A stretch of DNA of 56,790 nucleotides from an uncultured Veillonellaceae bacterium (GTDB lineage Bacteria > Bacillota > Negativicutes > UBA1444), in the NCBI GenBank assembly GCA_964386615.1, contig CAYLSL010000001.1, positions 1-56,790 on the forward strand, written 5' to 3'. The notes under the pieces were generated by a model. That model had not been told where the DNA came from. It was given only the letters and a program-made list of their open reading frames with translations, and searched no databases. Of the stretch, positions 1,160-19,633 are shown piece by piece. The position numbers and the translations under genes were made by a program. How positions within the stretch are numbered: the stretch's first letter is position 1; each line of letters begins with the position of its first letter.

Positions 1160-1189
1160 TAGCCACAATCACCTTTTCTATAAATTTGC

Positions 1190-1696: not shown

Positions 1697-1712
1697 ACAC
1701 CAACCTCCAGTT

Positions 1713-1728
1713 TTGAGCATATGCCCAA
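1713..1728 (-). promoter_or_regulatory. 16-bp imperfect palindrome (TTGGGCATATGCTCAA on the minus strand) located 4 nt downstream of the putative -10; candidate operator
   Basis: 7 of 8 symmetric base pairs. It has the same position and the same TTG..CAA ends as the palindrome at 12521..12536 upstream of the paralogous DUF134 gene. Confidence 0.35.
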
Positions 1729-1732
1729 TTCA

Positions 1733-1761
1733 ATTTTATGCTGGTTGTTTGAAAAATGCAA
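1733..1761 (-). promoter_or_regulatory. Putative sigma-70-type promoter for the DUF134 / disulfide-reductase pair
   Basis: On the minus strand: TTGCAT (1761..1756), a 17-nt spacer, then TAAAAT (1738..1733). Confidence 0.4.
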
Positions 1762-1846
1762 TATAAAAATGAGAAAAGCACTGTCACGCCAATCTTCGTC
1801 AGAACGATCCAGTGCTTTTCCCATATAAAATCATGGCTATATTATG

Positions 1847-2680
1847 CTAAAACTCGATCACAGTCCCCACGAAAGCCGAAATATACCGGGAACCAAATTT
1901 TTGGTAAAGAGCCGACATCATCGGAAACCCTGTACAATGATTTGCCGCTACAAAATCCGGGTTCCATTCGGCCAACTGATCAATCGTTTCATTTTGTTGT
2001 TTTTTTGATACAGGCCCCAAATGGGTCCCACCAATCCAACCTTTTAAACGAGTAGCACCAGTTACTGCAAACCCGTGCAAAACTGTATTTACCAAGCCGG
2101 AGTGGGTACAGCCACCGATTACAACGAGCTCTTCCCCCGCAGCGAAATAAATGGCCATATCATCAACGATCTCATCTTGGCAATCGCACCCCTCACATTT
2201 TATGACCAGATTAACATCGCCTTGCTCGAATTCGGACGCGCGAGGGACTTGTCCACTGAGCCATAGCTGCTCACCAATTTTCACCGGATCCGATACCCAT
2301 CGCCATTCCGCGCCCAGTGCCGATAATTGATCCAGCATGTAGGGAGACCCTATATACTGCCGAACTCCTCCCGCATTGGAATAGCGTGGCTTAAACATAT
2401 TCTCGTGTGCATATACCGGCATTTCTTTTCTGGCATGCTGCAAGATATGATACAATCCTCCAACGTGATCATAATGCCCATGACTAACAACCGCCAATGA
2501 AATCAGCTCTGGGGCAACTCCCAGCAAACTCAAATTGTTTACGATAGCTGCCGATTGCCCTGCGTCGAGCAAAATTTTCTTTTCACCTTCCTCGATCAAA
2601 AGGGAAAAGCCATGCTCACCCAAGAACGGCCTTTTGGAACTGATAGGCACAGTATTGTCCATTGCAACAGTAACCTTCAT
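1847..2680 (-). CDS. MBL-fold metallo-hydrolase (COG1237-type)
   Basis: N-terminus MKVTVAMDNT...GEHGFSLLIE..KKILLDAGQS and the metal motif VVSHGHYDHVGG. Length is 277 aa. Confidence 0.8.
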   Translation of the reverse strand: MKVTVAMDNTVPISSKRPFLGEHGFSLLIEEGEKKILLDAGQSAAIVNNLSLLGVAPELISLAVVSHGHYDHVGGLYHILQHARKEMPVYAHENMFKPRYSNAGGVRQYIGSPYMLDQLSALGAEWRWVSDPVKIGEQLWLSGQVPRASEFEQGDVNLVIKCEGCDCQDEIVDDMAIYFAAGEELVVIGGCTHSGLVNTVLHGFAVTGATRLKGWIGGTHLGPVSKKQQNETIDQLAEWNPDFVAANHCTGFPMMSALYQKFGSRYISAFVGTVIEF

Positions 2681-2710
2681 ATTCTCATCTCCCTATTTCA
2701 GTGTCCCAGT

Positions 2711-4048
2711 TCAGCCAACGACCATATTCAGCAGCAACAGTGCCAACAGTCCTACTACCGAAGCAATGGTCGTTGATAAAGTATAAGTTTTAAACAAATC
2801 CCCCATTGACATGCCAAAATACTCCTTGACGAACCAGAAACCTGGGTCATTGACATGCGATAATCCAATAGCGCCAGCACCTATGGCAACGGCAACCAGT
2901 GCAGGATCAAGTCCGGGGTACATCGGCAGCACCGGAGTTACCAGTCCGACAGCCGTAATCATCGCAATAGTGGCGCCCCCCACAGCTGCCCGCATGGCCA
3001 AGGCCACAATCCAGGCCAACACCAGTGGGTTGATATGCCAGGACATCAGCATTGTTTTAATTGCGGCGCCGATTCCGCTGTCCATCAGAATTTTGTTGAA
3101 GGCTCCACTAGCCCCGATGATCAGCAAAATAGCTGCCATCGGGCCGATTGCCACTTCGCTTAGTTTTTGCAGTTTTTCCATGTTCATGCCCCGGTTCAAG
3201 CCCAATGTCCAGTACGATAAGAACACGGCCAAAAACAGGGCGGTAACAGGATCACCAATAAAATTAACATAAACCATCATCGGGTGCGTTTTCCCGAGCA
3301 TAAACTCCAATGCGGTCTTGGAAATCATCAGTAATAATGGAAACAAAATAGTAAATAAAGTAATGCCAAACGGAGGAAGTTTGTCTTCCGGTGTTGGTTC
3401 TGCTTTGCAGAGGTGCGCCGGTGGATTTAACACAAATTTGTCACCAATCGCTTTGGCAAAAATTGGCCCTGCAAGAGCAGCGGCCGGCAAACCCACGAGC
3501 AATCCATAAAATATTACCTTCCCCAAATCAGCCTTTAATCCAATAGCAACTGCTGTCGCTGCAGGATGAGGCGGAACAATGCAATGAACCGTCAATAACC
3601 CAATAATCATTGGTATCCCGATGGTGACCAAAGACATTCCAGCTTCAATCGCAACACAGTATAACAGCGGCATTAACAACACAATGCCTACTTGAAAAAA
3701 GACGGGAATACCGCAGATATAACCAACTATCATGAGCGCCCAGTGGGCATTTTTCTTGCCCAACTTGTCAATTAATGTGCGAGCCAGCCGTTCTGCGCCC
3801 CCCGACACTTCCATCATTTTGCCTACAATGGCTCCAAGTGCCAAGATCGGCGCCAACATTCCTAAAAAACCACCCATTCCCAGTTCAATTGAGCTCAAGA
3901 TTTTGGTAAATGGCATTCCGGTTGCAAAGCCAATAAAAAAACAGGCTGTCAAAAGCGCTACAAAAGCATGCATTTTGACTCGGACGGTTAAAAGAATAAT
4001 TAAAGTAATAGCCAACAATAAAATGATCAGCATTCCTGTAGTACCCAC
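2711..4048 (-). CDS. GntP family permease (gluconate/glycerate-type H+ symporter)
   Basis: 445-aa polytopic membrane protein. The N-terminal region (GMGGFLG...LALGAIVGKMMEVSGGAERLA..L...GKKNA.WAL) is typical of GntP. It lies divergent to a CdaR-type regulator. Confidence 0.85.
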   Translation of the reverse strand: MGTTGMLIILLLAITLIILLTVRVKMHAFVALLTACFFIGFATGMPFTKILSSIELGMGGFLGMLAPILALGAIVGKMMEVSGGAERLARTLIDKLGKKNAHWALMIVGYICGIPVFFQVGIVLLMPLLYCVAIEAGMSLVTIGIPMIIGLLTVHCIVPPHPAATAVAIGLKADLGKVIFYGLLVGLPAAALAGPIFAKAIGDKFVLNPPAHLCKAEPTPEDKLPPFGITLFTILFPLLLMISKTALEFMLGKTHPMMVYVNFIGDPVTALFLAVFLSYWTLGLNRGMNMEKLQKLSEVAIGPMAAILLIIGASGAFNKILMDSGIGAAIKTMLMSWHINPLVLAWIVALAMRAAVGGATIAMITAVGLVTPVLPMYPGLDPALVAVAIGAGAIGLSHVNDPGFWFVKEYFGMSMGDLFKTYTLSTTIASVVGLLALLLLNMVVG

Positions 4049-4171
4049 AGTTTTCCCTCCCCACTTTTTGTACGATTTGCTACTATTGTTTAATCATCAA
4101 TCGTTCGCACACGCCTCCAGTCCAACGATAATTTCTATGCTAATCATAGATTTTAAGGCTTTTTATCGCAA

Positions 4172-4199
4172 TTGACGCAATATACCATTTTTTTATATT
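4172..4199 (+). promoter_or_regulatory. Putative sigma-70-type promoter for the cdaR-like gene
   Basis: TTGACG (4172..4177), a 16-nt spacer, then TATATT (4194..4199). It overlaps a direct repeat CGCAAT-tga-CGCAAT. Confidence 0.35.
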
Positions 4200-4268
4200 T
4201 GGGGTTGCGTTTTTTGTGCATTATGCTACATAATTAACTCGTTATCATTACGCAGGAGGAATGAAAGA

Positions 4269-5441
4269 ATGCTAATAAACAGCGACCTTGCTCAGCGTAT
4301 TGTCAATTCAACGATGTCCCTGGTTAACCGAAATGTTAATATTATGAATCGCGAAGGTGTCATTATCGCAACCGGGCATCCCCACAGAAAAAACACCTTT
4401 CATAAAGGAGCCAAAGATGTGATCGAAACCGGCATGGTTATTGAAATATACCCCGATCAACTGGATCAGTATCCAGGAGCTCTGCAAGGGATTAATCTTC
4501 CCATTGTGCTTGAAGAACAAGTTGTCGGGGTTATCGGAGTATTCGGGGTTCCCGACGAAGTCCGCGATACGGGGAAACTCGTAAAAACAATTACTGAACT
4601 AATCTTGGAACGCGAGTTATTGCAGGAAGAAACCAGATCCCGTTATCGACTGCGAGAACAGTTTCTGGAAACGGCTCTTTCTGTCGATGCAACAAGTGCT
4701 CTGCCCAAAATAAAAAGACTGGGAAAATCCTTAAATATCAATTTATCTTTGCCCCGTTCCATCTCGGTCACAAATGTCGGACCTTTTATCAAAAAAGCCA
4801 TATCTGGATACGGGTCCTCAGAATTGGTTTTGGAACGCTCCATAGAAGCCATTCTAACTCATATAGACCACTCTGGTCTCCTGAGCGAACAAGATCTAGC
4901 GGTTGTCTGGGACGAGCATTTGATCATGTTGAAATCATTTCCCGCTTCGTGGCAGCCGGATTCGCTACAGCACTGGGGTGAATCATTAATGAAAAGCCTA
5001 CAAGGACTCAGTCCTGAAATTACTTGCTGCGGTTCTGGAATGGTTGCAACTGCAGTCATCGATTATTCAACCTCATATCAGCAGGCGCTGTTCTGTCTTG
5101 GCAAATGCCATCCACCCAGTCGCTTACGAACCATCTATGACCGTGAGTTACTAGTAGGGTTTACCTTTGCAAAATCGACTAACTCTGTTATCAATACCGC
5201 ACTAGAACCCTTGGCCGGCAAATTTCAACATTACCTATGCAAAAAATCTGAAGGAAGAAAAACTATTGAGACTTTGCTTTCCTCCAATCTTAACCTTAGC
5301 AATGCCGCTAAGCTTTTGCACCTTCATCGCAATACACTTATGTTTCGATTAAATCAATTTCAAAACATAACCGGGCTTGATCCCGCTCATAATTTTGAAG
5401 ATGCCGTTTTGTGCCGGATTTTGCTTGATACAATCAAATAA
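4269..5441 (+). CDS. CdaR/PucR family sugar-diacid utilisation regulator
   Basis: N-terminal diacid-recognition-like region (AQRIV......N.NIMN..G.IIA.....R....H.GA) and a C-terminal PucR-type HTH (NLSNAAKLLHLHRNTLMFRLNQFQNITGLDP). AGGAGG RBS upstream. Confidence 0.85.
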   Translation: MLINSDLAQRIVNSTMSLVNRNVNIMNREGVIIATGHPHRKNTFHKGAKDVIETGMVIEIYPDQLDQYPGALQGINLPIVLEEQVVGVIGVFGVPDEVRDTGKLVKTITELILERELLQEETRSRYRLREQFLETALSVDATSALPKIKRLGKSLNINLSLPRSISVTNVGPFIKKAISGYGSSELVLERSIEAILTHIDHSGLLSEQDLAVVWDEHLIMLKSFPASWQPDSLQHWGESLMKSLQGLSPEITCCGSGMVATAVIDYSTSYQQALFCLGKCHPPSRLRTIYDRELLVGFTFAKSTNSVINTALEPLAGKFQHYLCKKSEGRKTIETLLSSNLNLSNAAKLLHLHRNTLMFRLNQFQNITGLDPAHNFEDAVLCRILLDTIK

Positions 5442-5519
5442 AAGGAAGTAATTGTATTGCAGGCTATCCAGCAACACAATCACTTCCTTTTATTACAACC
5501 CATTCAATGTTATTTTTGC

Positions 5520-6245
5520 CTATTCGACAACTTCGATCTTTTTCAGGCGATCTTGTTTGAACCGCTCGGAATAGGAATCATACGTGTAGATTGCCGCCAA
5601 CGGATTGTGACCCAAGGCCCGGTCCTTGACAGCAAAAACAGTCACCATCGCTTGGGAATATTTCATAAACATTGAATCGTGACCGACACATAGCCCCAGC
5701 AGAATGTTAAACTCGGTTTCGGCCGTATTCAGCACTTCCGCCTGGGCAATTGGATTGCACATCGGCTCATGCTGACCTATTTGGACCCGTTCGTGATCCG
5801 CCAAGTTCAGCGCAGCCTTGTCGATGCCGCCCACTTTACACATCACGGACACGACGGAAAATCCGTGGTCTTCGAGAATTTTACAAAAAACGGCCGCTTC
5901 TTTGTGCAATCCGCCGCAAAACGCCACGCCAAGTTTCTTGTAGCCCATTTTGCGGGAAAACTCAATGATTTCCTGTACCCGCGGCTTCACCGGGAATTTA
6001 TAGGCAGGTTGAGACATACGGTCAATGTAGCATTCTGCTTCCTGTACCGAGGCATTGTGGGCAAATAAATGAATGTCGGGCTTCGCGTATTCGGCAGCCG
6101 CATTTTCAATTGCATCGGGATACAGTTTAGTCGAGCAAAATGCCGGCGCAGAACCTTCCGGGCTCCTACAGATTCGGTTTTTCACCATACACTGGTCGCA
6201 TTTTCCTTCCCAGATTTTTTCAGTTTCAGTCGTAGACTTTTCCAC
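5520..6245 (-). CDS. DUF1847 domain protein (Cys-rich putative metal-binding protein)
   Basis: N-terminal CDQC...C....C motif, then LGVAFCGGL, MCKVGG and LGLCVGHDS, all typical of DUF1847. Length is 241 aa. Confidence 0.75.
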   Translation of the reverse strand: MEKSTTETEKIWEGKCDQCMVKNRICRSPEGSAPAFCSTKLYPDAIENAAAEYAKPDIHLFAHNASVQEAECYIDRMSQPAYKFPVKPRVQEIIEFSRKMGYKKLGVAFCGGLHKEAAVFCKILEDHGFSVVSVMCKVGGIDKAALNLADHERVQIGQHEPMCNPIAQAEVLNTAETEFNILLGLCVGHDSMFMKYSQAMVTVFAVKDRALGHNPLAAIYTYDSYSERFKQDRLKKIEVVE

Positions 6246-6297
6246 CCTATTCTCCCCCTAAAAAAATAATCATTCACGCCTGTGTTTGGCTCCGGGT

Positions 6298-7275
6298 CTA
6301 TTCTTCAGGCACGCACAATTTTCCTGCCCGAATTAATCCTAGAGTCTTAACCGCAACCAACAAAGTAACCAAGCTAGACAACATAAGTAATACAGTTCCA
6401 CTGTATTGAAAAAACACGAACTGCGTGGCCCTGAAGGCAATAAACTGAGCAATAGTAAGAGCACATAGCGGGAAAGTATAGGCCCACCAGGACATGAAAA
6501 ACGGCAACGCCAAAAATTTCTTATACATAGTGAATAGCAAGATGGCAATAAATAAAGCCAAATAAATCATAATACGTCCGGCTGCATCAAAACTGCCGGT
6601 GAGTCGAAAATAGGAAACAAATCCGATTGCTGGCGGCGCGATCAAAATAAACAGGGTTGGCACAAGCTTCCCCGGCAGGTCGCCGTGAAACCCCAATCGA
6701 TATATCATAATGGCAAATAAACTCAACCAAAACACTAATCCAATGCTATAAAAGAACCAGGATATTTCTTTCGAGGCAAACTCCACCCCGGCAATGGGTA
6801 CCAGGATATTGCCAACCACAGGAATAAACCAGGACGGGTTGAATTGTTGGATGCTATAAAGCCTGCCGATCCAGCGCGACACAGCAATTAGAGTAAATGT
6901 TAAATGCGCGATGGCCCCCGCCACCCACAAGCCCTTTGCCAAAGAAGGATTACTTTCCATCATGGCAATAGCAAGCAACAACAAACTGATGGAGATTGCG
7001 GGAAAGAAGTTAAACCGAACCGGATGATTAAATTCCTGCTGCGCCTCGTGAGGAAATCGGATAATTTTACCTATATAAAACCCGCAAATCACGAGGAATG
7101 CGCCAGAAGCCAGCAGCAACAACCCATTCCCCACACTATGCAGAATCGGATAGAGTTGTGCTGCCCGCATGAAAGCGATTGACAATCCTGTCAAACCCAT
7201 GATGCTGGCAAATACTGTGATGGGAAAAAATTGCACACTAAAACTCCTTTGCAAAAAAGCATCAAGGAACGGCAA
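6298..7275 (-). CDS. TDT/TehA/SLAC1 family anion transporter (tellurite-resistance / dicarboxylate transporter family)
   Basis: 325-aa protein with about 10 hydrophobic helices. The N-terminus FFPITVFASIMGLTGLSIAF is typical of the family. Confidence 0.75.
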   Translation of the reverse strand: MPFLDAFLQRSFSVQFFPITVFASIMGLTGLSIAFMRAAQLYPILHSVGNGLLLLASGAFLVICGFYIGKIIRFPHEAQQEFNHPVRFNFFPAISISLLLLAIAMMESNPSLAKGLWVAGAIAHLTFTLIAVSRWIGRLYSIQQFNPSWFIPVVGNILVPIAGVEFASKEISWFFYSIGLVFWLSLFAIMIYRLGFHGDLPGKLVPTLFILIAPPAIGFVSYFRLTGSFDAAGRIMIYLALFIAILLFTMYKKFLALPFFMSWWAYTFPLCALTIAQFIAFRATQFVFFQYSGTVLLMLSSLVTLLVAVKTLGLIRAGKLCVPEE

Positions 7276-7331
7276 AATCCTGACATCCTCTGATTTCTGC
7301 CGTTCCCCTGGTTCCCCTCTTAAATGCCAAT

Positions 7332-8519
7332 TTAGTGTCCGCAGCTATGACCATCGCCTTCTTCATGATTACATGCATTTTCCCCGCCAGTCAATACCCC
7401 GGTCAAATATTTTTTTACGATTTCCAGCGGTTCTTCCGGCACAATGCCGCAAACAACCGTAATCCCTTTGGATTCGAAGATTTGTTGGGCCCGTTCTCCC
7501 ATCCCGCCAACCAAAACTACGGTTGCACCTTGCTGCGAGAGCCATTCGGGAATCACGCCAGGTTCATGGGGCGGCGGCACCAGCATTTCCGTTGACACTA
7601 CCTTATTTTCTTCAACTGTTGCCAACAAAAATTGCTCGCAATGACCAAAGTGGGAACTCAAACTTCCTGCAACAACCGGAACCGCAACTTTTTGCTTTTC
7701 GTTCATTTTGTCTATCCCCTTCGCTTCCTCTTCTATAGATAGTCGGGAAACAATCGCCGATACCATCGTTTTCATGATTGCAGAACGTTCCAAAACGGAC
7801 GCGCCATCGTCGCCGGCACAGACCACCATCGGGTCAATCGGCATTTGGCCCAGAAATGGAACTTTGAATTCCTGCGCCAGTTTTTCGCCGCCGCCGACTT
7901 TGAAAATTGCGGCATGGTTACCGCAGGCAGGACAGACATAGCCACTCATGTTCTCAATGATGCCAACCACTTTCAGTCCGACTTGCTGGCAAAAATTCAA
8001 CGATTTTTTCACATCTGACAAGGCCACTCCTTGCGGAGTTGTTACAACAATCGCCCCACACCCTGGAATAAACTGGGCTACGGTCAACGGCTCGTCACCA
8101 GTTCCCGGCGGGCTGTCAATAATCAAAACATCGAGCGGCCCCCAGGCAACATCAGTCAAAAACTGCTTGATAACGCCGATTTTTAAAGGGCCGCGCCAAA
8201 TCACAGCATCATCCTGGTGCTGAAGGAATCCTTGCATCGAAATTACTTTTAGATTCTCCGTATATTGGTGAGGTTGAATCTTGCCGTTCACTGAGTCGAG
8301 CGCCAGCCCAGTCAGTCCGAGAATCCGTGCAATACTCGGTCCATGAACATCAATGTCCAGCAATCCCGTGCGCATTCCTTTTTCAGCACATTCTGTCGCG
8401 ATGGCGGCTGCCATAGTACTTTTCCCTACACCTCCCTTGCCGCTCATCACCATGAAAACCTGCTTTACACTTTTTAAAAATTGCTCCACTTCCGCATCTT
8501 GCTGTTGCCCGTGTTCCAT
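7332..8519 (-). CDS. Mrp/NBP35/ApbC-type Fe-S cluster carrier ATPase fused to a C-terminal NifX/NifB-like (Nitro_FeMo-Co) domain, ending in a Cys/His tail
   Basis: Deviant Walker A MSGKGGVGKST and the cluster-bridging motif YVCPACG. The C-terminal domain (VAVPV....LSSHFGHCEQFLL..V......STEML.....HEPGVIPEWL...GATVVLVGGMG..A..IF...GI.V) is followed by the tail CNHEEGDGHSCGH. Confidence 0.85.
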   Translation of the reverse strand: MEHGQQQDAEVEQFLKSVKQVFMVMSGKGGVGKSTMAAAIATECAEKGMRTGLLDIDVHGPSIARILGLTGLALDSVNGKIQPHQYTENLKVISMQGFLQHQDDAVIWRGPLKIGVIKQFLTDVAWGPLDVLIIDSPPGTGDEPLTVAQFIPGCGAIVVTTPQGVALSDVKKSLNFCQQVGLKVVGIIENMSGYVCPACGNHAAIFKVGGGEKLAQEFKVPFLGQMPIDPMVVCAGDDGASVLERSAIMKTMVSAIVSRLSIEEEAKGIDKMNEKQKVAVPVVAGSLSSHFGHCEQFLLATVEENKVVSTEMLVPPPHEPGVIPEWLSQQGATVVLVGGMGERAQQIFESKGITVVCGIVPEEPLEIVKKYLTGVLTGGENACNHEEGDGHSCGH

Positions 8520-8524
8520 TTTTC

Positions 8525-8893
8525 TCAGACCCCTTTTTTCTCATTTGGTGCAAAATATTCTTGATAGTGGCCTTCTAAAAATGCCGCCAGTACCTCACTG
8601 ACTTTACCGGGTTCGACGCAAAATACTTTGGCGTCGTTGGTCCGTAGTACCTGAAGTGCTTTCGGCCCAACATTCCCGGTAATCAACACTTTTGCTCCAA
8701 GCTTTTCTATGGTTTGAGCTGCTTGTATGCCTGCGCCGTGGGCCAAGTCGGCATTCGTGCTGTTTTCATAGACCGTCCAGGCTTTTTCCCGCGAATCAAA
8801 TACTAAAAAATAGGGAGAGCGACCAAACCGTCCGTCCATCATCCCGCCAGGGCTTTTCGTTGCCGCTGTAACTGCTATTTTCATTCTATTCAC
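8525..8893 (-). CDS. NifX/NifB-like dinitrogenase iron-molybdenum cofactor family domain protein (MTH1175-like)
   Basis: MKIAVTA......DGRFGRSPYFLVFD........EN........GAGIQAAQ.....GAKVLITGNVGPKA...L. Length is 122 aa. Confidence 0.8.
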   Translation of the reverse strand: MNRMKIAVTAATKSPGGMMDGRFGRSPYFLVFDSREKAWTVYENSTNADLAHGAGIQAAQTIEKLGAKVLITGNVGPKALQVLRTNDAKVFCVEPGKVSEVLAAFLEGHYQEYFAPNEKKGV

Positions 8894-8902
8894 CCCTTAT
8901 TA

Positions 8903-9781
8903 CTAACTATTTGCCAATCTAATTTCGAGTTGCTGCCACAACTTCACAACCTGCGACTTAAGTACTGCATCAGTCCCTGACATGACCGTCCGATTGTCTT
9001 GCAACGCCTGACGAAATTCATCCCGATAAGCGATTTCTCCGGCAATTTGAATACTATTTGTCGCGCACCAGTCATGGATTTGCTGGCGAACCCCGCTGTG
9101 TAAATCACTCTTGTTTATACAAACACAGAGCGGGATTCTAAAGTGTTCGGTTAGTTCAAACAATCGCTGCGCATCGTGTAACGCCGACAACGTCGGCTCC
9201 ACTACCGCCAAAACCAGCGATGCTCCTGTTATCGCCGCAATGGCCGGGCAACCAATACCCGGTGGACCGTCGGTCAAAATAAGCGGCGCGCTAAGCTCCG
9301 TCGCCATATCACGAGCCAGCCCCTTCACTTTACAAACCAGTTTGCCTGAGTTTTCTATCGCCACGCCCAAATCCGCATTCGCCATCATCCCGTAAGCAGT
9401 CTGCCAGGTTTTCCAGTCGCCCGCATTTCGCGGCTGCATCGCAATAGCCGCCGTCGGGCAATGATCGGCGCATACACCGCAACCTTCGCAAAGTAGCGGG
9501 CCAATGAGCTTCCCATTGTCGATAGCGCTAAATTGACAAAGTGCGCCACATTTATTGCACTGGATGCAGGCGGCAGAATCGACGCTGATTTCCCAGCCTG
9601 ACTCAAACGGACCAGTTGAGATTAGCTCACCGCCAAGAATCAACTGCAAATTCGCCGCATCTACATCGCAATCCGCTAGTACCTTATTGGGAATCAGCGT
9701 TGCCAGGGCACCGGTTATACTGGTCTTGCCTGTTCCGCCCTTGCCACTGACAACAACCAGTTCTTTTATCGGCATGCCCAT
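8903..9781 (-). CDS. MinD/ParA-type P-loop ATPase with an inserted 2x[4Fe-4S] ferredoxin domain (COG1149-type)
   Basis: Deviant Walker A SGKGGTGKTS. Cluster motifs CIQCNKCGALC and CEGCGVCADHCP. Its start overlaps the upstream paralog by 16 nt. Confidence 0.85.
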   Translation of the reverse strand: MGMPIKELVVVSGKGGTGKTSITGALATLIPNKVLADCDVDAANLQLILGGELISTGPFESGWEISVDSAACIQCNKCGALCQFSAIDNGKLIGPLLCEGCGVCADHCPTAAIAMQPRNAGDWKTWQTAYGMMANADLGVAIENSGKLVCKVKGLARDMATELSAPLILTDGPPGIGCPAIAAITGASLVLAVVEPTLSALHDAQRLFELTEHFRIPLCVCINKSDLHSGVRQQIHDWCATNSIQIAGEIAYRDEFRQALQDNRTVMSGTDAVLKSQVVKLWQQLEIRLANS

Positions 9782-10614
9782 TTCAACCTCACCTCTTCCC
9801 AGATTTTCCGCCCCATTGCAGCGGCTTCACCAGATAGAGCTCCCCCTGCATACTGTTCGGCCCAGCTACGGCTATAAGGAATATCGGCAATCAGCGGAAT
9901 CTGCCGTTTCATGCAGAGTTCCTGAATTTTTCGCCGCCAAACCCCTGCCTCGCTTTTATTGATCACAACGCCGCAATTCTTTACTCCGATTTCCTGCAAT
10001 ACATCGATTGCCAGTTCCAGGTCATGCAGCCCGAATGCATTGGGTTCCGTAACCAACAGGCAGCCGTCACTGCCCTGGACGGCCATGGCCATCGAACAAG
10101 AGGTGCCTGGCGGACAATCCAGAATCGTATTATCATATTGTTCCACTGCTGCTTTTAAGGCTTTAATTAACGGACCGCCAGCCGGAAATCCCGGATCGAT
10201 TTTCCCTGCCAGCCAGCGGACATGCTCATATGCGCCTGTGCCCCAACCTTTTTCCACTTCACCGATGCGGCGGGCTTGTTCTGCAATCGCCTGTTTTGTA
10301 CAAGCCAGTTGACAGCCGCCGCAGCTATGGCAAAGTTCGGGAAACACCATGGCTTTTCTTCCCGCCACCACTAGTGCAGCAAAGCGGCAAGCTTTGACAC
10401 AATCGCCACAGCCATCGCAACGCTCGGCCAGAATCGTCGGGGTGGTTATCGTCACCGCCACCATACCTTCCCGCTCGGGGTTCAGAAACAGATGGCAATT
10501 CGGTTCTTCCACGTCACAATCAACTAACTCCACCCGCACCGATCCCAACGCCATCATCAGCGCCACGGTTGTTTTACCTGTACCGCCCTTGCCGCTCGCC
10601 ACACTAACAATCAC
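9766..10614 (-). CDS. MinD/ParA-type P-loop ATPase with an inserted 2x[4Fe-4S] ferredoxin domain (COG1149-type), paralog
   Basis: Deviant Walker A SGKGGTGKTT. Cluster motifs CDGCGDCVKAC and CHSCGGCQLAC. Confidence 0.85.
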   Translation of the reverse strand: MIVSVASGKGGTGKTTVALMMALGSVRVELVDCDVEEPNCHLFLNPEREGMVAVTITTPTILAERCDGCGDCVKACRFAALVVAGRKAMVFPELCHSCGGCQLACTKQAIAEQARRIGEVEKGWGTGAYEHVRWLAGKIDPGFPAGGPLIKALKAAVEQYDNTILDCPPGTSCSMAMAVQGSDGCLLVTEPNAFGLHDLELAIDVLQEIGVKNCGVVINKSEAGVWRRKIQELCMKRQIPLIADIPYSRSWAEQYAGGALSGEAAAMGRKIWEEVRLKWACR

Positions 10615-10632
10615 TTAATCATCACCTCCCGT

Positions 10633-10881
10633 TTACTCCTGGGGTTTCCCCTGACGCATGGCATGCGCCTGGCTGCGTAGTCGCTCCGCCTGCTGCTGCA
10701 ACAATTCTGCCTGACTCTCCATCGTCTGTGGATCAGTAAAACGACCGCGGCCAACAAATCCACAGCCCATACCTCCGCCAAAACCTCGATTTCCTGTCAT
10801 ACATCCCCCACGACCTCTTCCCATCGGGCCCATCCCCATCGGGCCCATCCCCATCGGACCTGTTCCATCTCCTCTTGGCAT
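10633..10881 (-). CDS. DUF5320 family small protein (Gly/Met-rich N-terminus, C-terminal coiled coil)
   Basis: MPRGDGTGPMGMGPMGMGPMGRGRGG.. followed by ELLQQQAERLRSQ. AGGAGG RBS upstream. Confidence 0.7.
   Translation of the reverse strand: MPRGDGTGPMGMGPMGMGPMGRGRGGCMTGNRGFGGGMGCGFVGRGRFTDPQTMESQAELLQQQAERLRSQAHAMRQGKPQE
10821..10860 (-). repeat. In-frame 15-bp tandem repeat (2.7 copies) inside the DUF5320 gene
   Basis: ccatcgggcccatcc occurs twice, followed by ccatcggacc. It encodes the repeated GPMGM units. Confidence 0.9.
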
Positions 10882-10934
10882 TACAATTCCTCCTTTAAAC
10901 TTAAATGTTTTGAACTATATTTCATTACTTGTCT

Positions 10935-10960
10935 AAAAAAAAGGGCGCGCTACCCTTTTT
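10935..10960 (-). terminator. Weak hairpin with a T8 tract after the YeeE/YedE pair (possible terminator or attenuator)
   Basis: Minus strand: AAAAAGGG-tagcgcg-CCCTTTTTTTT. Only three GC pairs, so it is weak. Confidence 0.35.
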
Positions 10961-10984
10961 CATTATATTCCTCATGCAAAAAAA

Positions 10985-11515
10985 CTACAAGCCCTTTTTC
11001 TCCAGCCAGCGAAACAACAGCAGCGTCAAAATCACAAAAGGAATAATCACAAACCAATGATTGACGCCAAGGACTTGCGGCAAGGTGATCTTGCCAAAAT
11101 CGCCCCACTTCAGTACAGTGCTTTTCATCAAAGGGAAAGCTTCGGCATAAATCGCTGCGCCTGCAACCATGCCGGCAATTCCCCAAAGTCCATCTAGACG
11201 ACCTTCGCCGACTGCCCCCATCGAAGTACCGGGGCAGTAACCGAACAAACCCCAACCAATTCCGAACAGCAGTCCGCCGATGACGATCGCCCCAACAATC
11301 ATTGGCTTGATCGACAACTTTGCCAAACCAAGATCAACCAGCAAATAGGTTCCCACCATACCAACCACGATTGCCGACATCATGAATTTGACTATCGTCA
11401 TGTCCAGCATCCTCAATGCGCCAATCTGCTTGTCATAGCGCAACACCCGTCCTTTTTGCAACAGAAAACCAAACAAAATCCCGGTAATCAGTCCATACAG
11501 TTGATCGTTCGTCAT
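10985..11515 (-). CDS. YeeE/YedE family sulfur-compound transporter, half-size subunit B
   Basis: 176-aa membrane protein with GILFGFLLQKG and the conserved-Cys motif FGYCPGTS. Its ATG overlaps the stop of the upstream half-gene (ATGA). Confidence 0.85.
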   Translation of the reverse strand: MTNDQLYGLITGILFGFLLQKGRVLRYDKQIGALRMLDMTIVKFMMSAIVVGMVGTYLLVDLGLAKLSIKPMIVGAIVIGGLLFGIGWGLFGYCPGTSMGAVGEGRLDGLWGIAGMVAGAAIYAEAFPLMKSTVLKWGDFGKITLPQVLGVNHWFVIIPFVILTLLLFRWLEKKGL

Positions 11516-12039
11516 TTCGAGTCACCTCCGCCATAGAGCATCCGGGCTACAATGATCCCGCCGACGAAAAAGAACACCAGGGCAATAAACCCGCTGACCG
11601 CTAGCTGAAGCGAACCGCTCAGCCCATGACCACTCGGTCAGCCATCGGCCAAACGGGCGCCGAACATTGCGATCGTCCCACCAACGAAAGCAACCAGGCC
11701 TCGTTTGACCAACCCACCGCCAAACCGTTGCTGCCACATATCTGGCACCGCCTGAATCCGAAAACTGCCGGAAGAAATTGCCGCAATGAAGGAGCCCGCC
11801 AAGATTCCGACAACAAACATCCACTGCCAGTCAATTACCGGTTTTGTGCTAGCAAAATATTCTAATTGTTTGATTCGGGCCGGGTCAATCAGCTGTTCCA
11901 CATAGCCGGCGCCTCGCACAAATGTTGTCGATGCACCAAAGTACTTGCCGGTAAACCATACGGAACCAACAGAAACCAATCCTGCCAATGCTCCAGCCAG
12001 ATAAGGATTCCACGCGCCTGGATCTTTGTTTTTCTCCAT
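11512..12039 (-). CDS. YeeE/YedE family transporter, half-size subunit A, with an in-frame UGA (11640..11638) read as selenocysteine (candidate selenoprotein)
   Basis: The track ORF 11638..12039 ends ...FGARLADG-TGA. The same frame continues PSGHGLSGSLQLAVSGFIALVFFFVGGIIVARMLYGGGDSK to TGA at 11514..11512. My recollection of homologs is GGC(P/T)SGHG(L/I)SG, which puts the UGA at the Cys. The read-through product is 175 aa, matching the 176-aa partner. Confidence 0.65.
11604..11623 (-). promoter_or_regulatory. Candidate bacterial SECIS hairpin, starting 14 nt downstream of the UGA in the YeeE/YedE subunit A gene
   Basis: RNA: GCUGAGCG-GUU-CGCUUCAGC. The stem is 8 bp with one bulged U. The apical region reads G-GUU-C and is G/U-rich, as in known SECIS loops. 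Confidence 0.45.
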
Positions 12040-12081
12040 TGTCAGCCCTCCTTTTTTACTTCAATATTCTCTCGGGGTTAG

Positions 12082-12507
12082 CTAACGACGTCGGCTCACA
12101 GTATGACCTTTGCATTTCGGACAGCTCATCTCGCAGCCGCGCCCGCCATGTCCATGCGGCACTTCCCATTCATGCCCGCATGAATTGCAAATGAATTGTC
12201 TCAGCCCTATTGCACAAGGCTTCACACGGTAATTGCCACCCTCAATGCGTAAGGATTTACCCTGCCAAAGAAACTGAGCAATTTTCGCATGCGCTTTTGC
12301 AAGCACACGGTGGAAGGTTGGTCGGGAAATCCCCATCCGCTCGGCAGCTGGGCCTTGGTCAAGGCCTTCCATATCCGCTAAGCGAATCGCCTCCATCTCC
12401 TCTACGGAGATCACAATTTCATCCACCGCAAAAATCGGCACACCAACTGGTTTAAATTGCGCAATAGGCGGCAGTTGTTCGACATGCCTATCTTTGGTTG
12501 GTCGCAT
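12082..12507 (-). CDS. DUF134 (UPF0251) family putative DNA-binding protein with a C-terminal zinc ribbon
   Basis: MRPTKDRHVEQLPPIAQFKPVGVP...MEAIRLADMEGLDQGPAAERMGISRPTFHRVLAKAHAKIAQFL.QGKSLRIEGG. Extension: FICNSCGHEWEV...CPKCKG. Confidence 0.8.
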   Translation of the reverse strand: MRPTKDRHVEQLPPIAQFKPVGVPIFAVDEIVISVEEMEAIRLADMEGLDQGPAAERMGISRPTFHRVLAKAHAKIAQFLWQGKSLRIEGGNYRVKPCAIGLRQFICNSCGHEWEVPHGHGGRGCEMSCPKCKGHTVSRRR

Positions 12508-12520
12508 TGCGCCGCTCCTT

Positions 12521-12536
12521 TTGAACTATCTTTCAA
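12521..12536 (-). promoter_or_regulatory. 16-bp palindrome-like element (TTGAA-agatag-TTCAA on the minus strand) located 4 nt downstream of the -10; candidate operator
   Basis: Perfect 5-bp arms. Its placement matches the element at 1713..1728 upstream of the other DUF134 gene. Confidence 0.35.
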
Positions 12537-12540
12537 TTCG

Positions 12541-12569
12541 ATTATAAGAAAAACTCTCCGTTACGTCAA
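12541..12569 (-). promoter_or_regulatory. Putative sigma-70-type promoter of the DUF134-YeeE/YedE operon
   Basis: On the minus strand: TTGACG (12569..12564), a 17-nt spacer, then TATAAT (12546..12541). Confidence 0.6.
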
Positions 12570-12590
12570 TCATTATTACAGCATTACAGC

Positions 12591-13808
12591 CTAACCATGT
12601 TCTGACACAGGCAATAATCGCAAAATTTTCATTGCGGTTGCCAATGTCAGGCGAGTTTCCACATCATCAATCGATACGCTCAAAATCTCTTCAATTCTGG
12701 TTTTCCGTTGTAAAATAGTTTTATGATGAACAAAACTCCGCTCAGCAGCCTCCTTGAGTGTGGGCGCCGATAAAATTTCTTCCAGGGTTGCGACTAGTCC
12801 CGCTTTTTTTGTCTTGTCATACTGAATCAATTTGCCGATTGACTGGTCGACAAACTCCTGCAATTGGCCGGCATCTTGGAACTGAGTCAACAACTGACAA
12901 ATACCCAGATCTGCATAATGATACACATCATTGCCGCCCCAAACCCGTCGACCTACATTGGCAGCCTCTCTTGCTTCGCGATAGCAACGACGAATATCAA
13001 GAATATCGGTATAACTGGAGCTGACACCCACCGTCAGTCGAACTCCCGGCATATGCCTTATTACACGTTCTTTGCCGGACCTCGCTCTGGTCAGCGCATG
13101 GCCTTTGACATCAGCGCAAGGTTCTGGCAATGGGCACAATACTGCAAAGCCATCATAGCGGGTCCAGACGATCTTGTCCTGCTCTGCCGAACAGATTTGT
13201 GTGACCTGCCGCAATACTTCCTGCATGCCACGCTGGTCTTTCTGCAATTCTTCATAAGATTTTCCCGCATAATCATCAATACTGATCGCGAACAAAGCAT
13301 ACTTGGCCGCCAAATCGAGTCCCAGCGCCTTACCGCGCTGGATTGCCACTTCCCGGTTGTTAATTTCACCATCAGCCAATGCATTCAGCAAGTCAGCCCG
13401 TTGTTTTGCCTCGTCGGTTCTCAGTAAGGCTTCCGTTTCCAATTGTCGATCCTGCAGGTCCCGCACAAAGCAAAGCAAAAACTCCGGCTGTTCCGAATCA
13501 CTGTCAAGCACACTTACAATCAACCGGACCATAAAAGTCTCATCATTGCCTGCCTTGGCCTGCCCAAGCAGGTCGATAGCCCCGTGAGCCTCAGCCAGCG
13601 TTTTCCATCGTTCCGGCCCCAAGTCACCATTAGGGGGGAAAAAGCGTAATACAGACTCCCCCTTGGCATCGCTCGCAATGACGCCGAGTTGTTGTGTTGC
13701 AGCCTTATTCCATTCTGTCACGTGCAATTCATGATCAAAACAGATCATCGCCATCGGTGTTTGGTCAATGATTGCCCGTAGCCGGTTCAATGAACGGTCC
13801 TTTCCCAC
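12591..13808 (-). CDS. PucR-family transcriptional regulator with an N-terminal PAS-like domain
   Basis: PAS-like N-terminus (LRAIIDQTPMAMICFDHELHVTEWNKAA). C-terminal PucR HTH (LKEAAERSFVHHKTILQRKTRIEEIL). GTG start with a GGAGGGA RBS. Confidence 0.75.
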   Translation of the reverse strand: MGKDRSLNRLRAIIDQTPMAMICFDHELHVTEWNKAATQQLGVIASDAKGESVLRFFPPNGDLGPERWKTLAEAHGAIDLLGQAKAGNDETFMVRLIVSVLDSDSEQPEFLLCFVRDLQDRQLETEALLRTDEAKQRADLLNALADGEINNREVAIQRGKALGLDLAAKYALFAISIDDYAGKSYEELQKDQRGMQEVLRQVTQICSAEQDKIVWTRYDGFAVLCPLPEPCADVKGHALTRARSGKERVIRHMPGVRLTVGVSSSYTDILDIRRCYREAREAANVGRRVWGGNDVYHYADLGICQLLTQFQDAGQLQEFVDQSIGKLIQYDKTKKAGLVATLEEILSAPTLKEAAERSFVHHKTILQRKTRIEEILSVSIDDVETRLTLATAMKILRLLPVSEHG

Positions 13809-13827
13809 TTCGTCTCCCTCCGAATTC

Positions 13828-14283
13828 TTACTCCAGCGGCCGAATCATGGCAATTTCGTCACAGTTGGGAAATTTGCTGCAATTGATACAGTCTTTCCAA
13901 ACTTTCTGCGACAACTGTTCTTTAGGCACTTCATAAAAGCCGGCTTTAGCAAAGAAACCGGGTTGATAGGTCAGCGTGAACAAGGTTTTTACTCCCAGTT
14001 TCCGTGCATCTTCCATTAACTGCTGTACGATCTTAAACCCAATCCCGCGTCCGGCAAATTCCGGCGAAATCGCCATAGCGCGGATTTCCGCCAGCTCGTC
14101 CCATACAAGGTGTAACGCTCCTACCCCGACCACTTTGCCATCTTCTTCCGCCAACACAAAATCACGCAACGTCTCGTAGATGGAATTTCTGGACCTTGCC
14201 AGCATGAGCCCCTGCTCGGCATAATCATTAACAATCTTATGGATGCTTTCTACATCACGAAAAGTCGCTGTACGGTATTTCAT
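13828..14283 (-). CDS. GNAT family N-acetyltransferase (ArgA-like small acetyltransferase)
   Basis: Acetyl-CoA binding region AISPEFAGRGIGFKIVQQLMEDARKLG. Length is 151 aa. Confidence 0.8.
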   Translation of the reverse strand: MKYRTATFRDVESIHKIVNDYAEQGLMLARSRNSIYETLRDFVLAEEDGKVVGVGALHLVWDELAEIRAMAISPEFAGRGIGFKIVQQLMEDARKLGVKTLFTLTYQPGFFAKAGFYEVPKEQLSQKVWKDCINCSKFPNCDEIAMIRPLE

Positions 14284-14310
14284 TTCGCCACCCCCATATA
14301 TGATGAATAA

Positions 14311-14973
14311 TTATAACTTGTTATTTTGTTTTTTTCCATCATATTTTCCTGCAGCAGGACATAGCCTCGCCAAGGAGCACTCGCTACACAACGGATTACG
14401 GGCGCGACATATTTTTCGCCCATGCCAGATCAGCCAATGATGGGCGGCTGACCAATCTGTGCGGGGAATCAGTTTCATCAAACCCTGTTCAACTGCATCC
14501 GGCGTTTCACCGCGAGCCAGGCCCGTCCGATTGGCGACCCGGAATACGTGAGTATCGACGGCAATCGCCGGCACGCCAAACTGGTGGCTCAGCACAACAT
14601 TAGCCGTTTTGCGGCCAACACCTGGCAGTTTTATCAACGCTTCCAACGTTGCAGGGACTTCACCTTGCCAAACGTCGATCAGCATTTTGCAGGTAGCAAG
14701 AATGTTTTTGGCTTTTGCCCGGAATAAACCACAGTCACGGATCAGTTCCTCCAGTTGCTCAACAGTCAATTCCAGCATTTTGGCTGGCGTGTTCCACTGC
14801 GGAAACAACCGTTGTGTAATAATGTTTACCCGCACATCGGTACACTGGGCAGACAAAATTACTGCGATCAACAGTTCAAAAGAAGAGCTGAAAACCAGAC
14901 CCGTCGTTGCCCCTTGATAATCTCTGGCCAAAAGTTGCAGCATCTCTCTGCGGGCTGCCTGTGTCAATCGCAT
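14311..14973 (-). CDS. nth: Endonuclease III (DNA-(apurinic or apyrimidinic site) lyase)
   Basis: HhH-GPD motif LPGVGRKTANVVL plus the catalytic region, and the [4Fe-4S] loop CRARNPLCSECSLARLC. Confidence 0.9.
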   Translation of the reverse strand: MRLTQAARREMLQLLARDYQGATTGLVFSSSFELLIAVILSAQCTDVRVNIITQRLFPQWNTPAKMLELTVEQLEELIRDCGLFRAKAKNILATCKMLIDVWQGEVPATLEALIKLPGVGRKTANVVLSHQFGVPAIAVDTHVFRVANRTGLARGETPDAVEQGLMKLIPRTDWSAAHHWLIWHGRKICRARNPLCSECSLARLCPAAGKYDGKKQNNKL

Positions 14974-15120
14974 AAAAGCCTCCCAAACAATCTCTCCTTA
15001 ATGCTGGTTCAACAAATCTTGTACTCTTTCCTTCATTTTAGAAAGGATTTTTCGTTTTTAAGGGGAATTTAAAATTAAGTAACCGAAGCAACAACAATCC
15101 AAACGGAGAGGAGATTGCAC

Positions 15121-15387
15121 ATGTTTGGCTTAGGAATGCCAGAACTGATCCTGATTCTTGTTATTGCGCTAGTCATTTTCGGTCCTTCAAAATTGCCGGA
15201 AATGGGAGCATCTGTCGGCAAAGCGATCCGGGAATTCCGCAGTGCGACTAAAGAACCGGACCCGGAACCGGACCGTAAAGTAATCGTCGCTGAATATCAC
15301 GAGGCCCCCAAACAGATTTCGACAACTCCCGGTGGCGTTGATGCCGAAAAAGCAGCGGTCGAAAAGAAACCGGCTGTAAAGGAATGA
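15121..15387 (+). CDS. tatA: Twin-arginine translocase subunit TatA/E
   Basis: [43 protein letters not shown] at 15121 is preceded by GGAGAGGAG. The track start at 15115 is a TTG extension. Confidence 0.9.
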
Positions 15388-16061
15388 GTCACTTTAGTTT
15401 CAGCCGTCGCGATTTTGTAGTGGGAGCGATAGCGGGAACGGCTGCCGGCGCAACCATCGTTGCTGCCTTATTAAGAAAAAAAGCGCCTTCTGATGCCGCC
15501 TTGTCTGGAAACTCGGTCTTTAAGACTGACCGGGCTGCCCGCATCACAACGCCCAGCTTCATTGCCATAGATCATGCGCGTTGCAGCGGTTGTCGGATCT
15601 GCGAAGCAGAATGCGCTTTAGTCAGAGAGCATTCCTTTGATTTTTGGCGCAGCCGAATCAGAGCACATCGGTTTGAACCGCAACTTGATATCATTTCCCT
15701 TTGCGCAGGGTGCGCGGATGCCCCCTGCGTTTCTGTCTGCCCAAAAGAAGTTGTCGCACTGACCCGGGATACGCAAACTGGGGCAATCTTGCTGAACGAG
15801 AGCAAATGCATCGGCTGCCAGGCCTGCATAAATGCCTGCGCCAAAGATCGTACCGCTGTGCTTCGCATGAGCCGTGATGGCAAAAAAGCACTGGGGCTCT
15901 GCGATTTGTGCGGCGGAGACCCCGCCTGTGTCAAAGCCTGCCCCGAACAGTGCCTTTCCATCGTCCCCGCCAATATCGACGGCAAGGTGCTGGCGGCAAA
16001 GCCGGCCGAAATTGCACGTTCGCTTTCCCTGTCGGTCTATCGCGCGGGGGGGGATCGCTAA
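15384..16061 (+). CDS. Tat-signal 4x[4Fe-4S] polyferredoxin (DmsB/HybA/YdhX-like electron-transfer subunit)
   Basis: Twin-arginine signal [25 protein letters not shown]. Cluster motifs [15 protein letters not shown]...[17 protein letters not shown] and [14 protein letters not shown]. The start overlaps the tatA stop (ATGA). Confidence 0.85.
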
Positions 16062-17860: not shown

Positions 17861-17876
17861 AATCAGTCAGTGTATT

Positions 17877-19235: not shown

Positions 19236-19247
19236 TGGTTTGCCCCC

Positions 19248-19517
19248 TTAAATCCGGTGCATGACTTGAAAAATATCAGCGTGCTGAACTCTGATTTCGA
19301 GCCCCAAAGCTTCGCCTTTAGTCTTCATGATCGTCTGTAGTTCTTTTAAGCTAATTGCAGCGCCGCTCATGTCGGCAGTCATAATCATGTTGAAGAATCC
19401 ATCTAAAATCGTCTGGTCAAGATTGAGAATATTTACTCCGTTTTCAGCCAGCACGGTGGCCACCATGGCAATAATGCCGACTCGATCGCGGCCGAGAACA
19501 CTGATTACAATTTTCAT
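19248..19517 (-). CDS. ACT domain protein (UPF0237 family)
   Basis: MKIVISVLGRDRVGIIAMVATVLAENGVNILNLDQT. Length is 89 aa. Confidence 0.85.
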   Translation of the reverse strand: MKIVISVLGRDRVGIIAMVATVLAENGVNILNLDQTILDGFFNMIMTADMSGAAISLKELQTIMKTKGEALGLEIRVQHADIFQVMHRI

Positions 19518-19633
19518 GGTAACGCTCCTTTTATATGTTTTGATCTCAGGGTAACTATTATTGTATTTTCCTGCCGTACATAATGCAAGCTTAAATCATC
19601 TCTTGCGGCAAAAAAAGTAAAGAAGGTGAACGG

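Follow-up and report, generated by a model that had tools for sequence, protein, structure and literature searches.

A composite gene cluster of an uncultured Sporomusaceae bacterium combines a selenocysteine-containing split YeeE transporter with the ORP protein set, apparently under DUF134 control

The stretch of DNA analyzed here (the window, 56,790 nucleotides) belongs to an uncultured bacterium of the Sporomusaceae (Negativicutes), and holds a cluster of ten genes on its minus strand between positions 5520 and 12507. The best-supported reading of this region is that it is a composite of three modules that came to lie on one strand in one Sporomusaceae lineage. We consider it probable, at roughly 0.6, that these are a split YeeE transporter bearing selenocysteine (Sec), the set of proteins from the complex of the orange protein (ORP), and accessory genes, apparently under the control of DUF134 proteins acting at a 14-bp palindrome. 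The evidence consists of the identities of the genes, the Sec codon with its selenocysteine insertion sequence (SECIS), the composite structure of the locus, as well as the way in which the palindrome recurs and is placed. The cluster is a variant of a known system rather than a pathway of a new kind; both the ORP core and the selenoprotein transporter have been described before. What is new is the occurrence of the 14-bp palindrome before DUF134 genes across lineages, which suggests DUF134 control of those orp clusters that are without OrpR and σ54.

In module 1 (12569..10985) a sigma-70 promoter would drive DUF134-1 and the Sec-bearing PmpA/PmpB-type split transporter. Module 2 (10924..7332) would provide the complete orp set of Orp5/DUF5320, Orp3, Orp4, orange protein and MrpORP, and module 3 (7275..5520) would consist of occasional accessories, a putative anion channel of SLAC1/TehA type and DUF1847, a Cys-rich protein. 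The features of the array are the following:

12541..12569, minus strand: sigma-70-type promoter TTGACG-17-TATAAT upstream of DUF134-1, with 11 of 12 positions matching
12082..12507, minus strand: DUF134-1 (PF02001, 77.3 bits, cut-off 27; weak Zn_ribbon_8 and FmdB matches)
11512..12039, minus strand: YeeE-A, PmpA-type half transporter of 175 aa with Sec134 (PF04143 profile positions 175-310; read-through frame)
10985..11515, minus strand: YeeE-B, PmpB-type half transporter of 176 aa (PF04143 profile positions 18-149; DUF6691)
10930..10960, minus strand: weak terminator-like hairpin and T-run after YeeE-B, with a counterpart at the same place in L003, the nearest genome match
10633..10881, minus strand: Orp5-like DUF5320 protein with Gly/Met/Cys-rich N-terminus and coiled-coil C-terminus (PF17253, below the cut-off)
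9766..10614, minus strand: Orp3-like P-loop ATPase, MinD-type and carrying a 2x[4Fe-4S] ferredoxin insert (COG1149 type; CbiA/ParA and Fer4 matches)
8903..9781, minus strand: Orp4-like P-loop ATPase, likewise MinD-type and with a 2x[4Fe-4S] ferredoxin insert (CbiA/ParA/MinD and Fer4 matches)
8525..8893, minus strand: orange protein (ORP/Orp8) homologue of NifX/MTH1175 fold (PF02579, 72 bits; 2WFB match)
7332..8519, minus strand: MrpORP (Orp9), Mrp/NBP35 Fe-S carrier with a NifX-like (Di-Nase) domain (NF041136; PF10609 and PF02579)
6298..7275, minus strand: SLAC1/TehA/TDT-family anion channel or transporter (PF03595, 179 bits)
5520..6245, minus strand: DUF1847, Cys-rich alpha/beta protein (PF08901, 197 bits)

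The ten genes stand where the original prediction, made from the letters of the DNA, had placed them, and the list of open reading frames agrees for all ten. Its family assignments were borne out by Pfam, the DUF5320 call alone being weak (19 bits versus a gathering score of 27), and the junctions are, in order, a 42-nt gap, an ATGA overlap, gaps of 103 and 18 nt, a 16-nt overlap, and gaps of 9, 5, 56 and 52 nt. The promoter upstream of the first gene is also as described, and the hairpin in the 103-nt gap is present, weak as claimed (-12.1 kcal/mol, z = -1.0) and followed by a T-run. The ten-gene array recurs on two independent metagenome contigs of the same species (L001 and L002) and is therefore not an assembly artefact.

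The ORP complex occurs only in anaerobes and has been under study since 2011. Its founding paper is that of Fievet in 2011, on the complex of Desulfovibrio vulgaris Hildenborough (DVU2103-DVU2109). This complex comprises Orp3 and Orp4, which are MinD-like and carry two [4Fe-4S] motifs each, together with Orp5, Orp8 and Orp9; in vitro, Fe-S clusters pass from MrpORP to Orp3-Orp4-Orp8, and Orp8, the orange protein, holds non-covalently a Mo-Cu-S cluster, [S2MoS2CuS2MoS2]3- (Pardoux 2019, PMC6345978). The two ATPases, the NifX-fold protein and the Mrp-NifX protein of the window, and probably the DUF5320 protein, are the Desulfovibrio ORP set of Orp3, Orp4, ORP, MrpORP and Orp5. Gene 8 of the array scores 489.3 bits with the NCBIfam equivalog for MrpORP (NF041136, cut-off 450), and its motifs GKGGVGKST, CPAC, HFGHCE and PPPHEPGVIP agree with those described in PMC6345978. 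The best solved match of gene 7 is the D. gigas ORP (2WFB, E = 5.5e-19, residues 4-117 versus 5-119). Both ATPases carry two CxxCxxCxxxC motifs each and are, by architecture and synteny, the equivalents of DVU2103 and DVU2104. The DUF5320 protein is 43-47% identical to the products of the DUF5320 genes of L020, L024, L047 and L072 (46% for L047, whose own gene reaches 45 bits where that of the window reaches 19), and its N-terminus, MPRGDGT, resembles the MPYGDGT encoded by the dvu2105 primer; its synteny is conserved as well. The core of the cluster, which had been taken to have no characterised function, is thus the published ORP complex, with gene 8 above the MrpORP cut-off and gene 7 matched to 2WFB, and the COG1149 and DUF5320 members, which were said to have no known experimental role, are Orp3, Orp4 and, probably, Orp5 of a studied complex.

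Four structural components, and probably Orp5 as a fifth, are common to the window and to D. vulgaris, whereas the arrangement differs. In D. vulgaris the orp genes form two divergent operons under sigma-54, OrpR and IHF, while in the window they belong to a single co-directional array, with DUF134 genes, a sigma-70 promoter and the 14-bp palindrome in place of OrpR and sigma-54. The host also differs, being a member of the Negativicutes, and the orp genes are flanked by the Sec-bearing split YeeE, the TehA-type channel and DUF1847. Profile scans of the window gave no gene for an OrpR-type enhancer-binding protein in or beside the cluster, and the sigma-54 promoter TGGCAC-N5-TTGC is matched in the window at chance level, with no match in the leaders. 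In Desulfovibrio the ORP proteins are physically joined in one complex, in which MrpORP loads [4Fe-4S] clusters onto Orp3 and Orp4 and the NifX-fold orange protein holds the Mo-Cu-sulfide cluster; a cell-morphology phenotype also belongs to that system.

The original prediction mentioned neither the Sec codon of YeeE-A nor the separate regulatory site that heads the orp block. YeeE-A contains an in-frame TGA at 11640..11638 of the minus strand, in ARLADG-U-PSGHG, with Sec as residue 134. Gene callers end the gene at this TGA, giving 133 aa; full-length homologues of 172-175 aa span the whole read-through product and have an invariant Cys at the Sec position (ARLADG-C-PSGHGLSG). The ATGA overlap between YeeE-A and YeeE-B exists only when YeeE-A is read through this codon, a point absent from the prediction. 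The codon is followed by the expected element:

11593..11642, minus strand: bacterial SECIS hairpin with upper helix at 11603..11624 and apical loop GUU (fold -31.2 kcal/mol, z = -2.7)

Its upper helix is paired in 99.8% of the cells of 49 distinct sequences, and two pairs at synonymous codon positions are fully compensatory, CG<->UA in 14 sequences and GC<->AU in 6. A Rfam scan of 1..20000 gave no match, and the YeeE-A SECIS therefore lies outside any curated Rfam family. No sel genes (selA/B/C/D) or tRNA-Sec were found within the window. Nonetheless, a second Sec gene is present: FdhA (53739..56591, plus strand) is called as two in-frame open reading frames divided by a TGA at 54936..54938, in VDHCART-U-HSPTVAGL, and is really one Sec-containing formate dehydrogenase alpha subunit. 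This canonical HCART-TGA-H site suggests that the host organism decodes Sec.

A GUxSG selenoprotein family within PF04143 YeeE/YedE has already been catalogued (PMC13188914, PMC9312934; example WP_012471001.1), and YeeE-A is like it in the TGA of its G-U-x-S-G motif, the Cys of its homologues and the SECIS that follows, with no essential difference. To this family are added here the compensatory changes in the SECIS, the spread of the codon and the equivalence of the Sec position. Among 80 species-level genome loci anchored on YeeE-A (L003-L082), 52 have TGA at the Sec position and 28 have a Cys codon, TGC or TGT; the TGA forms are spread over several phyla, Bacillota, Desulfobacterota and Nitrospirota among them. 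The codon totals of 54/18/10 refer to the same set plus the same-species contigs L001 and L002. In an alignment to the crystallised YeeE (6LEO), Sec134 of YeeE-A falls on StYeeE Cys293 and Cys94 of YeeE-B on StYeeE Cys91. Cys293 is the essential, outward-facing thiosulfate-binding residue of the pore, and Cys91 is also essential (6LEO, PMC7449682). YeeE-A matches the C-terminal half of YeeE and YeeE-B the N-terminal half, and the two genes are adjacent in all 80 loci. The pair resembles PmpA/PmpB of Serratia (PMC11582611), also two adjacent half-size genes for the C-terminal and N-terminal halves, and differs from it in the length of the halves, ~130 aa there and 175/176 aa here. Compared with full-length YeeE/TsuA (6LEO, PMC7449682), the Cys293 position is Sec and the Cys22 position is Leu; unlike both systems, the pair in the window is adjoined by no TusA/YeeD-like partner gene. 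By analogy, YeeE-A and YeeE-B presumably form a heterodimer with the hourglass pore of YeeE. Its most likely import would be a species of sulfane-sulfur or thiosulfate type, with a selenium species as a further possibility. The ORP proteins would receive from the transporter the chalcogen with which they handle metal sulfides.

The composite structure of the locus is seen by comparison with the nearest genome match, the metagenome-assembled genome SM1-B11.1 (L003, JAHDPL01), in which the YeeE-A product is 96% identical and the DNA ~82% identical. The window aligns to L003 at 10912..12521, 5521..6270 and 1..1432, and between these lie two indels, 6271..10911 (DUF5320 through TehA) and 1433..5520. 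The gene order of L003 is DUF134, YeeE-AB, DUF1847, the six orp and TehA genes being missing, and the orp/TehA indel falls cleanly within the spacer between YeeE-B and DUF1847. L003 keeps at 11913..12086, right behind the stop codon of DUF1847, residues 95-152 only of a second DUF134 protein (DUF134-2), which indicates that L003 has lost DNA there and that the arrangement of the window is the older one at the DUF1847/DUF134-2 junction. The block lost by the lineage of L003 (1433..5520) holds the genes for an MBL-fold protein, a GntP permease and a CdaR-type regulator. That the window had gained its blocks by insertion was considered and is ruled out at this junction by the truncated gene remnant.

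The regulatory part of the reading concerns the DUF134 genes. DUF134-1 has a DUF134/UPF0251 domain with a sigma-70 region-4-like helix-turn-helix and a C-terminal zinc ribbon of CxxC...CxxC (Cys4) type; its paralogue DUF134-2 has a His/Cys-rich tail, ...HQHGQGHSHGNGHCCCGGHK, and heads a CoA-disulfide-reductase-like gene. A search of the PDB gave no solved relatives of DUF134, and a literature search gave only unrelated papers on DUF134x families. An 11-mer, ATAGTTCAAAA, was at first rated weak, three matches being reached in 14% of shuffles and the DUF134 leader of L003 lacking it. When 21 DUF134 leaders were compared, it turned out to be part of a 14-bp palindrome that in most of them lies after the -10 hexamer and before the ribosome-binding site, in the form TGAAATATATTTCA in Negativicutes and TGAGCATATGCTCA in other lineages. 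A first search pattern, TGANNATATNNTCA, was mis-registered for the Negativicutes form, and a position weight matrix (PWM), trained on 12 palindrome sites, none of them from the window, was used instead. The sites of the window and the second DUF134 gene are:

12522..12535, no strand assigned: DUF134 box 1, TGAAAGATAGTTCA, starting 5 nt past the -10 hexamer, in overlap with the expected start of transcription (PWM 13.7)
10911..10924, no strand assigned: DUF134 box 2 at the head of the orp block, TGAAATATAGTTCA as read on the minus strand (PWM 18.1)
1714..1727, no strand assigned: GC-type box in the DUF134-2 leader, TGAGCATATGCCCA (PWM 11.0)
1190..1720, minus strand: DUF134-2, probable start near 1693 (PF02001, 73.6 bits, cut-off 27; 44% identical to DUF134-1)

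Box 2 is the best PWM match in the whole window, and its score was reached in none of 300 Markov shuffles. It lies 30 nt upstream of the DUF5320 start codon, just past the terminator-like hairpin after YeeE-B, and an identical site stands 30-32 nt before DUF5320 in L024 and L072. Box 1 has the same geometry as the boxes in the DUF134 leaders of other loci. Over all loci, 39 sites scoring at least 14 were observed versus 11-19 in shuffles, and these are concentrated in the orp loci of Negativicutes, with 2-5 per locus. In Sporomusa ovata DSM 2662 (L047, chromosome 1405979-1426500) boxes at 13201, 13314, 18310 and 19313 precede three units, namely DUF134-Orp3-Orp4-ORP-MrpORP-NifX, CDF-DUF5320-TSCPD-NifX, and a DUF364/DUF4213 'heavy-metal chelation' gene. 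In the same genome the CoA-disulfide reductase-rhodanese and YeeE-AB genes converge on the boxed orp region. In L024 and L049, DUF134 and YeeE-A diverge from one common intergenic region. We infer that DUF134 proteins would bind the 14-bp palindrome and control the orp regulon where OrpR is absent. In this way they would regulate the modules of the window, unlike the sigma-54/OrpR system of Desulfovibrio. The wider proposal, that orp-type metal-sulfur clusters outside Desulfovibrio have DUF134/UPF0251 proteins as their missing transcription factors, which would bind either form of the palindrome, and that here the Sec chalcogen importer and ORP are under common control, is put forward tentatively and may well not hold.

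How often the modules occur together was evaluated from both sides, with the YeeE-A sample described above and with 80 metagenome loci anchored on Orp4 (L083-L162), the gene counts coming from the 36 of these of at least 8 kb. The Orp3 and Orp4 pair was found near the anchor in 36/36 loci, a NifX-fold gene in 30/36, Mrp in 20/36, DUF134 in 11/36, DUF1847 in 2/36, TehA in 1/36 and the YeeE pair in 0/36. DUF134 heads the orp clusters in those 11 metagenome loci and in 6 Negativicutes loci. From the transporter side, 11 of the 80 YeeE-pair loci, over two phyla, have orp-type genes at a distance of at most 10 kb: five belong to Geobacteraceae, where orp is co-directional and downstream, and six to Negativicutes/Bacillota, where it is convergent, divergent or co-directional. 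An unbiased census of orp neighbours on 56 orp-anchored loci gave MBL-fold proteins (21), DUF5320 (20), IscU-like scaffolds (16), radical-SAM proteins (13), FmdB zinc ribbons (11), CDF exporters (9), OrpR-like activators (7) and TauE (4). The small FmdB-type proteins of these 11 loci have the same type of zinc ribbon as the C-terminus of DUF134; the FmdB family is listed as a selenoprotein family (UxxU) in PMC13188914.

These counts bear on the original prediction that the ten genes are one dedicated operon, which would import a sulfur or selenium species and build or deliver a metallocluster to AOR, FdhA, the MopB enzyme and a hydrogenase-like protein. The genes are indeed co-directional, with short gaps and one strong promoter, metals and sulfur are the common theme of the recurrent orp neighbours (IscU-like, radical SAM, NifX, CDF), and the window does contain genes for MobA/MobB, AOR, FdhA and the MopB enzyme. 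Nonetheless, the ten genes are not a co-conserved unit, with the six middle genes missing in L003 and the YeeE pair, TehA and DUF1847 at or near zero among the orp-anchored loci. The neighbours of DUF1847 elsewhere are unrelated, and the terminator-like hairpin and a separate regulatory box split the array after YeeE-B. Nothing ties the cluster to the putative client enzymes, and no related locus provides a comparative link to them. Such an operon is improbable. The metal-sulfur and chalcogen-transport theme of the prediction stands, through the Fe-S transfer by MrpORP and the Mo-Cu-S cluster of ORP (PMC6345978) and through the sulfur and anion transporters found beside orp, which are the YeeE pair in Negativicutes and Geobacter and TehA and TauE in the metagenome locus L127.

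Several observations speak against the composite, DUF134-controlled locus as favoured here. The score of box 1 alone is not significant, being reached by 48% of shuffles, and the box is not recognisable in the DUF134 leader of L003. Box 2 is intercistronic and without clear -35 and -10 elements, which leaves room for a roadblock mechanism or for action at the RNA level. The YeeE pair is missing from all the orp-anchored loci counted and 69/80 YeeE-pair loci are without orp, which makes the coupling of YeeE and orp facultative. All 11 orp-linked YeeE-A genes outside the lineage of the window encode Cys and not Sec, indicating that Sec has no special part in the link. The orthology of Orp3 and Orp4 to DVU2103 and DVU2104 comes from architecture and synteny and not from direct sequence comparison. 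Finally, the published proposal for ORP is septum positioning ('putatively cell division') and not metal-sulfide trafficking (PMC6345978). As a separate observation, Sec (TGA) forms are the majority of the sampled YeeE-A genes, yet they stand beside orp only in the lineage of the window.

Some of these points would be expected if the adjacency were incidental. In that case the modules would be independent, the YeeE pair and the CoA-disulfide reductase and rhodanese proteins handling sulfane sulfur or thiosulfate, ORP acting in cell division, TehA and DUF1847 being passengers, and rearrangement alone having put the modules on one strand. It would fit with this that a flavoprotein of CoA-disulfide-reductase type (11 loci, and also the window and L003), and not orp, is found most often next to the YeeE pair, that most orp clusters are without the YeeE pair, that the orp block is an indel versus the nearest relative, and that the published role of ORP is in cell division. 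However, two distant phyla share the linkage, which in Negativicutes has outlasted rearrangements, while the chance of two single-copy loci lying within 10 kb of each other is ~0.5% per genome. Moreover, both modules have DUF134 genes and boxes at their sides, in L024 and L049 a single intergenic region separates the divergent DUF134 and YeeE-A genes, and the anion transporters TehA and TauE are embedded in orp clusters elsewhere. Incidental adjacency is judged rather unlikely. A facultative functional coupling between the transporter and ORP is plausible, because the linkage is found in two independent lineages, persists through rearrangements, and is accompanied by shared DUF134 genes and boxes.

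A further explanation gives the same proteins a protective role against toxic metal-chalcogen species, as homeostasis of chalcogen oxyanions or thiometalates, in which ORP would sequester thiomolybdate or thiotungstate with copper and the YeeE pair and TehA would move S/Se/Te anions, without cofactor building. The non-covalently bound cluster of the orange protein (PMC6345978) would be in line with such a role, as would the recurrence near orp of CDF exporters (9 loci), DUF364/DUF4213 and TauE, the CDF and DUF364/DUF4213 genes that follow DUF134 boxes in S. ovata, and the family annotation that ties TehA to tellurite resistance. Against it, the TehA-like gene is below the equivalog cut-off and rarely linked to orp, and MrpORP acts as an Fe-S maturation factor in vitro (PMC6345978); the comparative data gathered here do not separate detoxification from biosynthesis. 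We consider this role very improbable.

The two genes of module 3 are occasional accessories of orp clusters. The TehA-like gene has a full-length SLAC1-family domain match, as in E. coli TehA, plant SLAC1 and yeast SSU1 (TDT family), but only the broad PF03595 cut-off is reached; it scores 137 bits with the TehA equivalog NF008032 (cut-off 342) and 175 bits with the TDT subfamily TIGR00816 (cut-off 237). Beside orp it occurs in only one other locus, L127. TehA was considered as a conserved partner and discarded, being present in 0/80 YeeE-anchored loci and the single orp-anchored one. Of the YeeE-anchored loci only L003 has DUF1847, to which L072 adds a partial match. It has >5,600 homologues, labelled only 'uncharacterized metal-binding protein', and eight Cys are invariant in the alignment. 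Its model is a confident alpha/beta structure (pLDDT 84.6), for which a fold search gave only generic Rossmann-like matches and no real structural one (TM <= 0.32); a sequence search of the PDB gave no match, and no mention of the family was found in searchable papers. The neighbourhoods of three homologues elsewhere are unrelated. The only other place found with DUF1847 and a TehA-type gene together beside orp is L127 (metagenome contig Ga0315543_1002369, 1..13021), an independent one-strand orp cluster. Its order is ARMT1-like, two DUF5320, a NifX-DUF5320-ferredoxin fusion, PanD, DUF1847, SLAC1/TehA, TauE/SafE, Orp3, Orp4 and Mrp, interspersed with a few unassigned open reading frames.

Beyond DUF1847 the window contains two further genes of families met above:

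1..1189, minus strand: CoA-disulfide-reductase-like flavoprotein, cut by the start of the window and following DUF134-2
1847..2680, minus strand: MBL-fold protein

The orthologue of the first in L003 is a Pyr_redox_2 and rhodanese fusion, followed by another rhodanese gene. The MBL-fold gene lies outside the region covered by the original prediction; in Geobacter an MBL-fold gene stands between Orp4 and Mrp, and that of the window may have been displaced from the orp neighbourhood. Regulators of PucR/CdaR type stand on both sides of the cluster, one upstream (12591..13808, minus strand, PAS+GGDEF_2+HTH_30) and one downstream (4269..5441, plus strand, Diacid_rec+GGDEF_2+HTH_30). The latter adjoins the GntP permease gene and probably controls it, rather than the ten-gene cluster.

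For the DUF134/UPF0251 family, the operator-like palindrome makes its members candidate regulators, which, if true, would be the first function for this family. The recurring, facultative link of orp with small sulfur and anion transporters (YeeE pair, TehA, TauE) and with metal exporters and chelators points to metal-sulfide handling. If common DUF134 control is true, the ORP complex would work in sulfur- or selenium-dependent trafficking of metal sulfides, besides or instead of septum positioning. Sporomusa ovata, a cultured acetogen with the same features of the regulon, is a usable experimental model.

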